Source: an uncultured archaeon (GTDB lineage Archaea > Asgardarchaeota > Lokiarchaeia > Sigyniarchaeales > SOKP01). Taken from it: a stretch of DNA of 64,000 bases. Position 1 is the stretch's first letter, and each line of letters opens with the position of its first letter. Positions 52,064-63,882 of the stretch are shown piece after piece. The notes beneath the pieces are model-generated. The model saw nothing but the letters and a program-made list of their open reading frames with translations, searched no databases and had not been told where the DNA came from. Where the stretch lies: positions 32,001-96,000 of the forward strand of contig CAZALK010000016.1 in assembly GCA_964486045.1 (NCBI GenBank). Direction: 5' to 3'. The translations under genes and the position numbers were made by a program.

Positions 52064-52594
52064 TTATTTTCTGATTTTTTTATTCATTTCTAAAGCTAAC
52101 TTGGTGAAGATATCATCAACACCAGTACCTAATTTAGCACTTGTCTCGTCAAATGAACAAGCTCTAATATCTTGTTTAAGAGAATCGGATTCTTCAACAG
52201 AAATAATTTTATCATCAATTAGATCACATTTATTTCCAACTAAAACATTGGGAATATATCCGGATGTGGTTTCTACTTCTTGTTTCCAATTTTCAATATG
52301 ATTAAAAGTTTCTTTTCGAGTTAAATCAAAAACATAGATGATACCTTGTGTACCTTTGTAAAACGCACGCCTGACCCACTTGAAATGATCTTGACCGGCT
52401 AAATCCCATATTTGTAAAGAAATAAAATTATTGGTCTCAGGGATTTTCACATTTTTCACAAAAAAATTAGCCCCTATAGTAGACTCTACGTTTGACAGGA
52501 ATCGTTTCTCGAGATACTGAAAGAGTAATGTGCTTTTCCCTACTCCAAAATCTCCGACAATACATACTTTGTAATAGGGCGTCTTCAAGCTCAT
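52064..52594 (-). CDS. Rab-like small GTPase (canonical motifs)
   Basis: GDFGVGKST, STIGANF, WDLAGQ, GNKCD, TSAK; ATG 52594 preferred over TTG 52630. Confidence 0.93.
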   Translation of the reverse strand: MSLKTPYYKVCIVGDFGVGKSTLLFQYLEKRFLSNVESTIGANFFVKNVKIPETNNFISLQIWDLAGQDHFKWVRRAFYKGTQGIIYVFDLTRKETFNHIENWKQEVETTSGYIPNVLVGNKCDLIDDKIISVEESDSLKQDIRACSFDETSAKLGTGVDDIFTKLALEMNKKIRK

Positions 52595-52900
52595 TTTTTT
52601 GTATAAAGTGAGAAATATATTTTGAATCAAATTTGAAATTAAATTATAATATGTTTAAATTCATCAATTGATATCAAGATAATGTATTATTAAATCATGT
52701 ATATGGGTCATTTTTGGTTTCAGATGTGAATATCATTGTTATCATTACTTTTCAAATATAATATTGATTTCAAACTAACTCTGTTATTTATAGAAAACTA
52801 TATTACGGTGGAATTCTTAAGAATCATGATTGGTTCATTTTTTTAGAATGCCCCAATTTTGTAATGAACAAACTTTTAGGAAAGTACCAAGGTTGTATCG

Positions 52901-59667: not shown

Positions 59668-59877
59668 TTCTTTTAACTCCCAAATCAGTTAATTTAATTA
59701 TACTATATTTTAAAAAAATCAGAACGTTTTTCTTAACAAGATAATAAACTACTTATTAAAAAACTTAAGGAAATCGATACTGGAAAACTAAAACTTCTTA
59801 TTGCAAAAAAAGATTTTTAAACTTGGAATTAATTTATTTTTATATTATAGTTTATCCATTTGAGAAAGTGTGCTAAG

Positions 59878-60732
59878 ATGCAATTATTTAAAATTAGTGA
59901 TAAAGGAGATTTAGAACCACTTAACAGGTTAAACTTCGAGGAAAATGATGTCTATCTTGTTGATGATAATCAAAATAATACAATCTATGTTTGGGTGGGA
60001 ATTCAGGTTAGTCAGGTTAAAAAAGATATCACAGCAGAGCTTGCAAGAAACTTGGATAAAAGACGTGGTGGATCTACAAAAATCCTCATTATGAAACAAA
60101 AAAGAGAATACGGGTCTTTTTTAGCCATGATGCATGATTTGGAAAAAGGTCGAATCCCAGGCGAGACAACAGAAAGAAGACCAGAGTTTGTCTTTAATGT
60201 ACCTACTGAAAGCATAGAATCTGTAAAGCTTGATGGAATTCCAGAAGAACGGGAGGATGCACTTGAAACAAGAACAAGAGCTTGGTTAGCGCAATTAAAT
60301 GAGCATAGACCATCTAAAGTAGACTCAAAACCTAGTGAGGCCACCAAAGCTGTCAAATTCATAAGACTTGAGAGGGAGACTGGGAAAATCGAACCAACTG
60401 ATAAGTCAAATGTTGAAAGAATTACAGTTACAGAACAATTTATAGAAGAAGTTGAGGAACCTGACCTTAAAACCCATGTAAGAGAGGCGGCATATTATCT
60501 TTCGTTAAAAAAATATACGTACGATCAACTCTGTTGGCTTCTGAGCGAGCAGATTCAAAAAATAAACCTAGACCTTCCTTCGATTGAGGATATTAAGAAA
60601 AAGGCCGAGGAGATCTTCCGATCAGGTTGTACTTATGATGAACTCTGCTGGCTTAATTCTGAGATGGATTTTCTAATCAAAAAGAGCTTTTTGGAAAAAA
60701 ATGTTAATAAATTTCGTTACTTAACGAAATAG
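59878..60732 (+). CDS. Gelsolin-domain protein with duplicated C-terminal helical (X/DUF2934-like) module, 1DGelX-like
   Basis: DVYLVDD...IYVWVG gelsolin core; REAAYYLS..YTYDQLCWLLSE and KKKAEEIF..CTYDELCWLNSE repeats. Confidence 0.8.
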   Translation: MQLFKISDKGDLEPLNRLNFEENDVYLVDDNQNNTIYVWVGIQVSQVKKDITAELARNLDKRRGGSTKILIMKQKREYGSFLAMMHDLEKGRIPGETTERRPEFVFNVPTESIESVKLDGIPEEREDALETRTRAWLAQLNEHRPSKVDSKPSEATKAVKFIRLERETGKIEPTDKSNVERITVTEQFIEEVEEPDLKTHVREAAYYLSLKKYTYDQLCWLLSEQIQKINLDLPSIEDIKKKAEEIFRSGCTYDELCWLNSEMDFLIKKSFLEKNVNKFRYLTK

Positions 60733-61370
60733 GTTATTATAGTAATACACCCTATACTGATAAAGATTGTAGTGGAAATTATGGTTATATATAATTTAGG
60801 GACTTTTTTAGCTATTAGAGCTCCCAAGAATACACCCATCCATGCTAAAGTTATAAGCGCTAAAAATGATCCGATCCACACTTCTATAGGAGAAGAATAA
60901 ACGGATGTAAGGGTAACGGTTAGTATTTGAGTTTTATCCCCTAATTCCATAATAAAAATAAATAAACATCCCGAGAGATATGGATTACTCTTTAACTTGG
61001 TAAGTTTAGATGTAATTATTTTCTTAGAACTAGTTTTCTCTGAATCGTCTTCAATTATTGTATTTCCAATAGTTTTATTTTGTCGTTCGTGGTAGAGTTT
61101 CTTGATTTTGGGTAGTTCTAACAAACCCATAACTAAAAAAAGAATACCGGAGAATAGAGTAATAATTGAAAGATCTACAATTTGACCAATAAACATTCCA
61201 ATAATTACCCCAAGAGAGACAATAAGGGCAAAGCCTAGCGTTGCTCCTATACCAACCTTATATGATTTATCATATTCCAAAGTTAAATTAAATACAATTA
61301 GTTGGGTTTTATCACCAAGCTCCCCAAGAAATAATATCCCATATGTAATAAAAACAATAATCCAATCCAT
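60717..61370 (-). CDS. TMEM165/GDT1 (UPF0016) Ca2+/Mn2+ transporter
   Basis: Two ELGDKTQ motifs, 6 TM segments. Confidence 0.95.
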   Translation of the reverse strand: MDWIIVFITYGILFLGELGDKTQLIVFNLTLEYDKSYKVGIGATLGFALIVSLGVIIGMFIGQIVDLSIITLFSGILFLVMGLLELPKIKKLYHERQNKTIGNTIIEDDSEKTSSKKIITSKLTKLKSNPYLSGCLFIFIMELGDKTQILTVTLTSVYSSPIEVWIGSFLALITLAWMGVFLGALIAKKVPKLYITIISTTIFISIGCITIITYFVK

Positions 61371-61509: not shown

Positions 61510-61815
61510 TCAACCACAACAACTATCGCTCTGTGGGTTTTTTGCTCGAGAACGGGCATCATATAAACAACCGCAACCTTGACGTTCTTGTAAGAGTATT
61601 GCCATTGCGGGACAGTTTCTTTTACAAGCGCTACATTCAGTACATCTTTCTGGTTCAAGGACTTCGAATTTTCCATTATTAGTTGGTTGGGGGATCCCAA
61701 AGGGACAAATCTCGAAACAGATTCCACAACCCGTGCATAAATCTTGATCAATCGAAATTTTTGGAAGTACAATATTTATATTTATCGAAGTGGTTTTTAG
61801 GGTTATTTTTTTCAC
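61510..61815 (-). CDS. hgcB: HgcB-like 2x[4Fe-4S] ferredoxin
   Basis: CTGCGICFEICP, CTECSACKRNCP, GCGC, C-terminal SCCG; directly downstream of the hgcA-like gene. Confidence 0.75.
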   Translation of the reverse strand: MKKITLKTTSININIVLPKISIDQDLCTGCGICFEICPFGIPQPTNNGKFEVLEPERCTECSACKRNCPAMAILLQERQGCGCLYDARSRAKNPQSDSCCG

Positions 61816-61873
61816 ACCTTTTTTTCTTTCTAACTATATTAAGGGCTTAATCATATTTATGTTATTTCATAAT

Positions 61874-63547
61874 TTAAAATAAAACAATTCCACTTATTGT
61901 CAATGCTACTCCAATGATTAACAAAAGAATATGGATCTTCCTAAATGTGGGATACTCTTTCTGAATCTCACCCGGACTAGTAGCCATTGAGTATCCACTC
62001 AAACTCATAGTTGAGAAGAAGGCAACCCAGAAATAAAAGATAACATTCCAGAGAATTAGAAAAAAATTCGAATGTAATACCCATGTTAGGCCCCCCAATA
62101 GAAAGACATTAAGAATCCCAAAGAAAATACCTTTAATTATGAACTTCCGAGTGAATTCTGATAAAGGAAACAAAACGGTAATTAGAGCATTAGTTACAAT
62201 GATCCAGAGCCAAATCTCACCTATCCTCCAAAATTTACTGATCCAAAATGGTGGATGAATAAAGCTCAACCCAACGAGAAGGAGTAGCAAGACGATTGAA
62301 GGTAGAAAAAATATTTTTCGTAGTAAAAAAGTCGTATGGGTAATAAATGCTCTTAGTCGGTGAGAACTTGTAAATTTAGCGAGTTTCCATTTATCGGGTT
62401 TTTTAGCAGGACGATCTTTTAAAAACTGCGGTAAGTATTTTGCCCAGACAGGTCCGAACAGAAGATTAAAGGGGAAGCTTGGTGATTCACTAGATATCAA
62501 GGGGGCAGCTACCCCTCCTGCTGAAAGTTGGGGAAGTATTAAGGTTTTTCTAGTAGTAACATTTTCAATCCCTGAGGCTTCAACAGCCTCAATGAGTTGT
62601 TTGTTACCAAAATTATTTCCTCGTGCTGCACACCATACATTTATACCATCAGAATCTACACACAACACCCAAGAATCTATTCCCTTAAGGGCACGCATAA
62701 CTCTAATAAAAGTATAAAGATAATTCGCAGTTGCTATAACCGGTGATTTTTCATCTGGGTGTCCTGATTGATAAATTCCCGGTTCAATTGGGATATGATC
62801 TGCTTGACCTGTAAAAATACATTTATAAATTTGCATCTGGGATCGAAATCCTTTGAATTTCCGAGCTGGTGGTCTATAATATCCAGGTTCACTATCATCT
62901 CCTTTAGTAGTTTTTTGTAATTCCAATGCTCTAATAGAACCATGCTTCCAATTCTCTTCAGCCACTATCTTAAATCCTATAGGTTCAAGATAATTAATAA
63001 ACCATTTTACTCGAGATGTACTTGGAAGTCGAAGTCTTCTCAGTTTTTTCTTATACCACCATCGTTTTAAGTTAAACACTATTTTCCAAAACCCAGAGGG
63101 AACAAATTCAGCACCGATAATTAATTTTCCATTTTGGCTTAGTTTTTTCCATGCATTTCTTAGAAAAATCTGTTGTTCAAATGGTCTCAGTTCAGAAATC
63201 ATAAAAGTACTTACTATAACATCTATATAACTCTCTTCAGTGGGTATTTCTGTGATAGTTCCTATTTGATATGTTAATTTCACTTCTTTATCTGTAGGAT
63301 AATTTTTCATAGCAGTATTAATCATTTGAAAATTTTTGTCTATTGCTATTACTTCATTCCCTTTTAACGCTATATTAGCAGCAAGGACACCTGTACCACA
63401 TCCTACTTCCAGTACTGAATGAGAGGTTCCAATTTGATTTAGGATCCAATCTTTAACTTTGATATTAACCCCTTTGGTTAAAGCTGTAAATTTCTCTTCA
63501 TACGTATCTGGTTCTTCTTCTAGCTTTCGCATAAAAGTAACAGCGAT
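61874..63547 (-). CDS. hgcA: Class I SAM methyltransferase fused to an HgcA-like corrinoid protein with C-terminal TM domain
   Basis: VLEVGCGTG motif I; EPGIYQSGHPDEKSPVIATANY, GINVWCAARG, LILPQLSAGGVAA, FGPVWA; about 5 TM with SGYSMATSPGEIQKE. AGGAGGG at 63554-63560 favours ATC 63547 over ATG 63532. Confidence 0.8.
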   Translation of the reverse strand: MAVTFMRKLEEEPDTYEEKFTALTKGVNIKVKDWILNQIGTSHSVLEVGCGTGVLAANIALKGNEVIAIDKNFQMINTAMKNYPTDKEVKLTYQIGTITEIPTEESYIDVIVSTFMISELRPFEQQIFLRNAWKKLSQNGKLIIGAEFVPSGFWKIVFNLKRWWYKKKLRRLRLPSTSRVKWFINYLEPIGFKIVAEENWKHGSIRALELQKTTKGDDSEPGYYRPPARKFKGFRSQMQIYKCIFTGQADHIPIEPGIYQSGHPDEKSPVIATANYLYTFIRVMRALKGIDSWVLCVDSDGINVWCAARGNNFGNKQLIEAVEASGIENVTTRKTLILPQLSAGGVAAPLISSESPSFPFNLLFGPVWAKYLPQFLKDRPAKKPDKWKLAKFTSSHRLRAFITHTTFLLRKIFFLPSIVLLLLLVGLSFIHPPFWISKFWRIGEIWLWIIVTNALITVLFPLSEFTRKFIIKGIFFGILNVFLLGGLTWVLHSNFFLILWNVIFYFWVAFFSTMSLSGYSMATSPGEIQKEYPTFRKIHILLLIIGVALTISGIVLF

Positions 63548-63882
63548 GATAATCCCTCCTTTAACATGCTAATCATTATGATTGATAATTAAATTATGGA
63601 TATTGAAAAAAAAAATTTAATGAAAAATTAAAGTTTTTATTTTTATAAATATTCTACGTTATTTAAAAATTGTAATTAAGACTAATTAATGTCTGAATAA
63701 TTTATCCTAATTAGCATTCTGACAAAAAATCGGTCAATAGTGGCGGAAATAATTATTAATTTAGATACAAAACGTTTATATAGAACCTTTAATCCTTATA
63801 TAAATACTATTCTTTAATTTAATTTTAAAATAAAAATAAACAAAAATAGAAATAAAAAAAAAGTATTCAAAAGGTAATTTTA

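Follow-up and report, generated by a model that had tools for sequence, protein, structure and literature searches.

The 64,000-nucleotide stretch of Lokiarchaeia DNA analysed here (contig CAZALK010000016.1 of assembly GCA_964486045.1; hereafter the window) encodes a protein in which a class I S-adenosylmethionine (SAM) methyltransferase domain of the CpaM type is fused to a corrinoid and membrane protein resembling the mercury-methylation protein HgcA, followed by a separate HgcB-like ferredoxin. Judged by motifs, profiles and trees, this protein is built like HgcA, yet lies outside canonical HgcA in an Asgard clade of its own. We give about an even chance to the explanation that the system is a membrane-anchored, cobamide-dependent and ArsM-independent methyltransferase for thiol-bound As(III) or methylarsenite, with Sb(III) as a possible substrate, and this arsenic reading is put forward because an arsenic-resistance (ars) operon context recurs at the loci of relatives.

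Architecture of the fusion protein and its ferredoxin

The open reading frame on the minus strand (61874-63532) specifies 552 residues from an ATG and contains no internal stop. We place the real start at an ATC at 63547, five codons upstream of the ATG at 63532, because homologues begin there and a GGAGGG lies 6 nt before it; the predicted protein is then 557 residues long. At this position homologues have ATG, GTG or TTG, or else ATC or ATA, and the relatives of the same genus have ATC or ATA. These non-canonical starts recur in the window (63545-63547) and in the same-genus orthologues, and gene callers would therefore clip five residues off the protein.

Pfam recognised a class I methyltransferase at residues 40-139 of the 552-residue protein and the CdhD family (PF03599) at residues 233-338. 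Among the NCBIfam models, CpaM (NF043040) matched residues 1-205 with 127.6 bits, under its cut-off of 180, covering profile positions 5-214 of 216; an earlier reading of the window, made from its sequence alone, had noted a likeness to CpaM for this N-terminus, and the match bears it out. With its full-length match, its position before an HgcA-like corrinoid domain and the invariant residues that it shares, the domain is best described from its sequence as a divergent CpaM homologue, and it is by far the best match to the CpaM profile in the window's genome. The models for HgcA (NF040863; residues 246-547, 166.7 bits, cut-off 275), HgcAB-like proteins (NF043039; 171.3 bits, cut-off 285) and AcsC/CdhE (NF003195; 65.5 bits, cut-off 306) all scored under their cut-offs, and ArsM (NF008823; 34.3 bits) scored far under its cut-off of 263. 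The best match of the ferredoxin was HgcB (NF040864; 54.5 bits), again under the cut-off of 99.

The AlphaFold2 model of the fusion (predicted local distance difference test score (pLDDT) 82.3; predicted template modelling score 0.77) consists of a Rossmann methyltransferase, a corrinoid domain and five long C-terminal helices (residues 389-423, 434-454, 464-487, 490-512 and 520-551). Its top Foldseek match was the HgcAB model 9a0b, and the fold of the CpaM domain resembled the small-molecule methyltransferases PmtA, Coq5 and TleD. Cys301 of the cap helix is invariant among homologues. Pfam, NCBIfam and the structural model thus agree with the sequence-only reading, which had described one reading frame joining a SAM methyltransferase, an HgcA-type corrinoid domain with the cobalt-ligating cysteine and a transmembrane domain. 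The HgcB-like ferredoxin that it had noted is also as described: the gene begins at 61815, 58 nt past the stop of the fusion, and its product (61510-61815) contains two CxxCxxCxxxC motifs, the sequence CTECSAC, a GxGC motif in the form GCGC and a terminal Cys-Cys.

Distribution of the fusion in Asgard archaea

A homologue search returned over 120 full-length homologues at 61-91% identity with labels from Loki-, Thor-, Hod-, Heimdall- and Hermodarchaeota, and nearly all of the best 120 were full-length fusions. Two closed genomes contain the fusion, annotated simply as a methyltransferase: that of Promethearchaeum syntrophicum (QEE17993, WP_147664869) and that of Ca. Lokiarchaeum ossiferum (UYP44054). 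Some Hodarchaeales fusions bear the automatic name CpaM. HgcA-like matches were found in 202 of 400 Asgard genomes, one of which passed the HgcA cut-off. This sole canonical HgcA (L011, genome G397) is closest to Anaerolineales sequences (77%), which suggests transfer or mis-binning. P. syntrophicum MK-D1 has a second system, a stand-alone CpaM with an HgcAB-like fusion (L353; QEE16896), so both variants live together in one cultivated organism.

Placement within the HgcA family

The fusion protein retains the equivalent of HgcA Cys93 (Cys301) and the five-helix membrane domain. The canonical cap motif N[V/I]WC[A/S][A/G/S]GK (PMC10087281) is replaced by NVWCAARG, in which RG stands for GK, and the score of 166.7 bits falls short of the HgcA cut-off of 275. 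Similarly, the ferredoxin has the two CxxCxxCxxxC motifs, the Cys73 equivalent and the terminal cysteines of canonical HgcB, and differs in carrying CTECSAC where C(M/I)ECGA is expected and in its score (54.5 bits, cut-off 99). The NVWCAARG cap is common to 159 of 201 fusions of a methyltransferase with an HgcA-like protein, none of which has GK (0/201). Across the sequences gathered here, GK occurred in 0/212 CpaM-fused proteins and a fused CpaM in 0/170 GK proteins. The C-terminally fused ferredoxin of the HgcAB-like fusions (NF043039) is lacking, the ferredoxin being a separate gene. The As-binding cysteines of ArsM are likewise missing, with no conserved cysteine outside motif I, and the features of AcsC/CdhE (a score above 306 with NF003195, absence of the cap cysteine and grouping with CdhE) were not found.

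Quick trees set the query apart from CdhE (99), canonical HgcA (100, SH-like approximate likelihood ratio test) and the HgcAB-fusion clade (95), and thereby supported the expectation that the corrinoid domain goes with the HgcA family and not with CdhD/CdhE. A tree made from concatenated corrinoid, membrane and ferredoxin domains placed the RG forms in one clade (97/93) and canonical HgcAB in another (100/100); the query lay outside the latter and on its side of the tree (99/92). The approximately unbiased test did not reject a different position for the query's clade (p-AU 0.465), nor was a placement as sister to the HgcAB-fusion clade, and with a CdhE outgroup a single clade of all CpaM-linked forms was not rejected and scored better (p-AU 0.805). 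Any root or deep order of the HgcA-family clades would be tentative on these trees. Because the cap-helix, HgcB-motif and NCBIfam tests failed and the clade is separate, the protein is regarded as HgcA-like, and the plain label HgcA given to it earlier does not hold.

Two other kinds of fusion were encountered in this comparison. One, in Ca. Abyssubacteria (L224, GCA_054680575), has a ferredoxin with the canonical CMECGAC, and in the concatenated tree it lies closest to canonical HgcAB (99/93). The other, a divergent CpaM fusion of Anaerolineae with the cap NVWCATD (L163-L165, L209), sits on a long basal branch of the family, and no adjoining ferredoxin was seen at these loci.

Arsenic genes and metal-binding thiols in the clade of the fusion

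We counted neighbours at the 54 RG-clade loci with at least 2.5 kb upstream: 33 had an ArsR with CxC(E/D), 24 an Acr3, 6 an ArsC-like protein and 2 an ArsM. Canonical loci had ars genes beside them in 11 of 64 cases; among the other CpaM-linked forms, many of which are likewise from Asgard, there were none (0/27 and 0/23). At the species level, ArsR, Acr3 or ArsC lies beside the clade in 21 of 36 distinct Asgard species, rising to 29 when a Cys-rich MarR is added. Three arrangements recur: arsR / acr3-fusion-ferredoxin in Loki-type families, arsR directly upstream in a Thorarchaeia-labelled family, and a divergent arsR or Cys-rich marR in the window's genus. The order arsR / acr3, fusion, ferredoxin occurs in both cultivated Asgard archaea, and a search of the MK-D1 genome for ArsM found none. 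At locus L219 the order is arsR / DUF166, acr3, arsM, fusion, ferredoxin, with ArsM scoring 347 bits (cut-off 263) and Acr3 281.9 against 282.8. Some MarR proteins are known to use cysteines to sense As(III) (10.1101/2021.08.12.456183), and the Cys-rich MarR of the clade may belong with them; its homologue in the window's genome precedes arsM. The sequence-only reading had left the acceptor as mercury, another metal(loid) or an organic substrate, and the comparative context of the relatives favours arsenic or antimony over mercury.

The thiols of the ferredoxin follow the same division of clades. GxGC is present in 68/68 RG-clade ferredoxins (GCGC in 67) and terminal cysteine in 66/68, comparable to canonical HgcB (GxGC 82/84, of which GVGC 80/84; terminal cysteine 78/84), whereas the HgcAB fusions have neither GxGC nor the thiol tail (0/37). 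As(III) binds three thiols (10.1101/2022.10.17.512643), and the extra cysteine of GCGC would fit three-coordinate As(III) binding.

In ars-type loci, two small conserved proteins without a Pfam or NCBIfam match follow the ferredoxin (L219:9023-9803 and relatives), one with CxC and one ending in GC in some copies, and DUF166 and DUF2769 genes recur. Seven same-genus loci (L060, L221, L222, L322, L327, L330 and L337) encode, between marR and the fusion gene, an uncalled peptide of ~27 residues that begins and ends with Cys-Cys and is preceded by the palindrome TAGTTAGG-NN-CCTAACTA. The palindrome is a candidate MarR operator, and the peptide may be a small chaperone for metalloids; the window's genome has neither.

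Coupling of CpaM to corrinoid domains

CpaM was searched in four groups of genomes centred on named loci and was found in 29/251 genomes of the class Anaerolineae, 14/251 of the phylum Desulfobacterota, 1/151 of the class Methanosarcinia and 4/201 of the class Bathyarchaeia. A non-canonical corrinoid domain is fused or adjacent in 44 of the 48 CpaM loci from these four non-Asgard lineages. In contrast, none of 80 canonical hgcA loci has CpaM, the best score there (57 bits) being at the level of unrelated methyltransferases. The methyltransferase, the HgcA-like protein and the ferredoxin occur in four combinations: the first two fused with a free ferredoxin, a free methyltransferase with the last two fused, three separate proteins, and triple fusions that are scattered over several places of the tree. 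Anaerolineae CpaM fusions with a short ferredoxin lacking the thiol tail, and triple fusions in Desulfobacterota and Asgard (L141-L165, L183, P0146 and P0156), have no ars context.

Invariant in CpaM are an N-terminal M-x-x-L-E-x-x-P (M1, L4, E5 and P8), GxGxG, D65, E114 and E142. There is no conserved cysteine, and CpaM is for this reason not ArsM-like; a basic amphipathic helix is present. One of the 48 CpaM loci is that of Methanococcoides methylutens, which encodes an HgcAB-like fusion (WP_048193041) with a CpaM (WP_048193042). Complex prediction for a natural split CpaM/HgcAB-like pair gave a weak pass (0.39, best control 0.00), with at least 57% of contacts agreeing between runs and a partner pLDDT of at least 73. 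The mark was reached by 58/80 solved pairs and 2/110 mismatched pairs, but only 7 solved pairs and both mismatches were at 0.60 or under, and such weak passes are oftener wrong than right unless the pairing is likely beforehand.

Locus and genome neighbourhood

The coordinates of the locus are collected in Table 1. Downstream lie gelsolin-like, GDT1, cupin and major facilitator superfamily genes, and upstream a membrane protein and a flavodoxin. The GDT1 cation antiporter gene (60717-61370, minus strand), inserted after the ferredoxin, was considered as a part of the system and excluded, being missing from the syntenic loci L221 and L222. The gelsolin-domain protein (59860-60732, plus strand; Pfam) and a Rab-like small GTPase recognised by eye (52064-52630, minus strand) are typical Asgard eukaryotic-signature genes.

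Table 1 Features of the fusion locus in the window.
Feature	Position	Strand	Basis or remark
Shine-Dalgarno-like GGAGGG	63554..63559	-	6 nt ahead of ATC; similar sites of relatives at the same position
CpaM::HgcA-like fusion gene, 557 aa (552 aa from ATG 63532)	61874..63547	-	Open reading frame, profiles, start-site comparison
Class I SAM methyltransferase domain, CpaM-like	62912..63547	-	Pfam; NF043040 127.6 bits (cut-off 180)
SAM-binding motif I	63389..63415	-	Sequence
Corrinoid-binding domain, HgcA/AcsC type	62408..62839	-	PF03599; PDB corrinoid iron-sulfur protein large subunits, E about 1e-7
Cap helix NVWCAARG with Cys301 (codon 62630-62632; = HgcA Cys93)	62618..62647	-	
Membrane domain, five helices, HgcA type	61877..62368	-	AlphaFold2 model and hydropathy
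HgcB-like 2[4Fe-4S] ferredoxin, 101 aa	61510..61815	-	Open reading frame, Pfam, NF040864
Ferredoxin GCGC motif	61567..61578	-	Cys83 = HgcB Cys73; Cys81 = extra thiol typical of the clade
Ferredoxin C-terminal Cys-Cys, flexible tail	61516..61521	-	Like HgcB Cys94/Cys95

The window's genome, a metagenome-assembled genome with 7.8% contamination, has an ars operon on another contig (C25; L345, G000:C25:36700-38900) with arsR, acr3, a small protein, ydjM and an HD gene. The window's copy of the fusion appears to have been relocated out of this operon, because the operon keeps the gene order of the relatives without the fusion and the ferredoxin. A marR-methyltransferase-arsM cluster (L346, G000:C4:181300-184000) has genes nearby that look dsrE-like by eye, and MerA is encoded on another contig. 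No in-frame stop or selenocysteine codon was found in the window genes; in the same check a TGA flagged in L351/L352 proved to lie between two genes. Searches of the locus for Rfam elements or riboswitches returned none, a sigma-70 promoter scan was at chance level, and a search of a plasmid collection gave zero matches.

Discussion

In canonical HgcAB, cobalamin is brought to Co(I) by the ferredoxin and then methylated by SAM, and the resulting methyl-Co(III), with Cys93 as its ligand, hands the methyl group on to Hg(SR)2 (PMC11588087); Cys73 and Cys94/95 of HgcB are required and have been proposed as a metal shuttle (PMC7305189). By analogy, the ferredoxin of the window would reduce the cobamide to Co(I), and the CpaM domain would bind SAM and present its methyl group to Co(I), yielding Cys301-ligated methyl-Co(III) and S-adenosylhomocysteine. 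The GCGC and Cys-Cys thiols of the ferredoxin would catch the metalloid and carry it to the cobalt, where a methyl carbanion or radical may displace one thiolate, as with Hg(SR)2, to give a methylated, non-oxidised product. MtaA is known to methylate arsenic with methylcobalamin as a side reaction (PMC13262295), and arsenic has been suspected as the native role of HgcAB from its regulator context (10.1101/2022.10.17.512643).

The sequence-only reading had proposed that the fused domain loads SAM-derived methyl onto the cobamide in cis. The near-obligate linkage of CpaM to corrinoid domains and the repeated fusions strengthen this idea and make it reasonable to suppose, but canonical HgcAB takes its methyl group from SAM without any methyltransferase (PMC11588087). 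A CpaM domain would thus not be chemically required, and here the proposal of loading in cis is at its weakest. Further points weigh against an arsenic methyltransferase. In some genomes ars genes adjoin canonical hgcAB as well (PMC7438021), and deletion of hgcAB in ND132 left As(III) resistance unchanged (10.1101/2022.10.17.512643). No ars gene or regulator lies near the window's own fusion. The genomes compared are related and some loci are duplicates, so that the counts overstate independence, and the ars markers were Asgard sequences, with less sensitive detection in bacterial loci. Several of the genomes also encode an ArsM, in one case within the operon of the fusion, and the fusion is therefore no simple substitute for ArsM. 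A more specific version, in which a dedicated ArsM-independent cobamide arsenic methyltransferase, widespread in Asgard archaea, has CpaM directly methylating Co(I) and in which HgcAB arose from an ancestral three-module design by loss of CpaM, is offered tentatively and may well be wrong.

A different use of the same modules, still connected with arsenic, is rather unlikely. CpaM would methylate an arsenical or another small molecule by bimolecular nucleophilic substitution, or reactivate Co(II) as in methionine synthase, and the corrinoid and ferredoxin part would reduce, further methylate or demethylate organoarsenicals. The arsenic context is equally compatible with this division, the co-occurrence of ArsM hints at a different step, the CpaM fold is like that of PmtA, Coq5 and TleD, and we know of no class I methyltransferase shown to methylate cobalamin. 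However, CpaM has no conserved cysteine for arsenic binding, and no alternative methyl-donor gene recurs in the loci. CpaM is also equally conserved in clades without an ars link, for which reason its acceptor looks like the shared corrinoid domain.

We consider it unlikely that the acceptor is an organic or membrane substrate such as a lipid, quinone or cofactor, with a regulatory or incidental ars linkage. Such a substrate would suit the membrane anchor, the UbiE/PmtA-like fold and the basic amphipathic helix of CpaM, and metalloid context is absent from the other CpaM-linked clades as well as from the window's copy and 7 of the 36 species. The metal-binding thiols of the ferredoxin, on the other hand, are kept here and in canonical HgcB and not in the HgcAB fusions, and the arsenic-type regulatory arrangements recur in three distinct forms.

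That the fusion is a mercury methylator missed so far, with Hg(II) as its main substrate and a SAM loader of its own, seems improbable, although the equivalents of Cys93, the Trp, the five helices, Cys73 and the terminal cysteines are all retained and the concatenated tree puts the clade on the side of canonical HgcAB (99/92). The system falls short of the high-stringency motifs, that of the cap and C(M/I)ECGA (PMC10087281), as well as of the NCBIfam cut-offs, lies outside the canonical clade (100/100; alternative placement not rejected, p-AU 0.465), and no mer gene is among the recurring neighbours. The tested CpaM-linked relative, from Methanococcoides methylutens, belongs to the HgcAB-fusion class, which has given no methylmercury in culture (PMC10087281). 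A side activity on Hg is possible. Last, the chance of an assembly artefact or a degenerate CdhE/AcsC paralogue is negligible: the genome is metagenome-assembled with some contamination and PF03599 is the CdhD family, but artefact is refuted by the full-length homologues and closed genomes, and a paralogue by a separate 485-aa CdhE-like gene in the same genome and the split from CdhE at 99.

The window's clade shares with HgcA/HgcB of Pseudodesulfovibrio mercurii ND132 (NF040863/NF040864) the corrinoid domain with its cap-helix cysteine, the five-helix membrane domain, a separate dicluster ferredoxin with the Cys73 equivalent and terminal cysteine tail, SAM as likely donor and, in some genomes, ars neighbours, which are far more frequent in the window's clade. 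It differs in the fused CpaM, the RG cap, its separate clade, both missed cut-offs, and a ferredoxin with CTECSAC and GCGC instead of C(M/I)ECGAC and GVGC. The HgcAB-like fusions (NF043039; Pyrococcus furiosus, M. methylutens WP_048193041) with stand-alone CpaM (NF043040; WP_048193042) have the same three modules in the same order, with a homologous CpaM and a non-GK cap helix. They are joined in reverse, the window's clade having CpaM fused and the ferredoxin free, and they form a separate clade without thiol tail (0/37) or ars link (0/23), both of which the window's clade has. Organisms with fused HgcAB produced no methylmercury in culture (PMC10087281; PMC4646819 for P. furiosus). ArsM (NF008823) has in common the class I SAM fold, a place in ars operons and the proposed products, but the window's CpaM reaches 34 bits against 263 and lacks the conserved cysteines, true ArsM is a separate gene, and the route proposed here would run through methyl-cobamide and ferredoxin. 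AcsC/CdhE has a homologous corrinoid domain with a cap helix, whereas AcsC lacks the cap cysteine and the membrane domain and receives its methyl group from methyl-tetrahydrofolate via a TIM-barrel enzyme; a separate gene of this kind is present in the window's genome.

Already known were the chemistry of HgcAB, the occurrence of fused HgcAB in Asgard (PMC10083202), the NCBIfam name CpaM and the presence of ars genes next to canonical hgcAB in some cases. Our literature search found no paper describing CpaM or the CpaM::HgcA-like fusion, although Zhang et al. 2023, on Asgard mercury methylation, may do so. That paper aside, the searchable literature yielded nothing on a separate Asgard clade that has the HgcB-type thiol tail, on the ars context of such a clade or on canonical loci excluding CpaM.

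A separate HgcA-family clade with its own SAM domain, tied to arsenite efflux and sensing, bears on the native role of the HgcA family. In mercury surveys the fusion genes may be counted at lower stringency, and for the time being they should not be scored as methylators. With its intact operon and no ArsM found, P. syntrophicum MK-D1 is a cultivated organism in which a second route to methylarsenicals could be tested. If CpaM does methylate cobalt, it would represent a new pairing of a class I methyltransferase with a corrinoid protein, and an ancestral three-module design, if true, would explain both the use of SAM by HgcAB and its lingering ars links.

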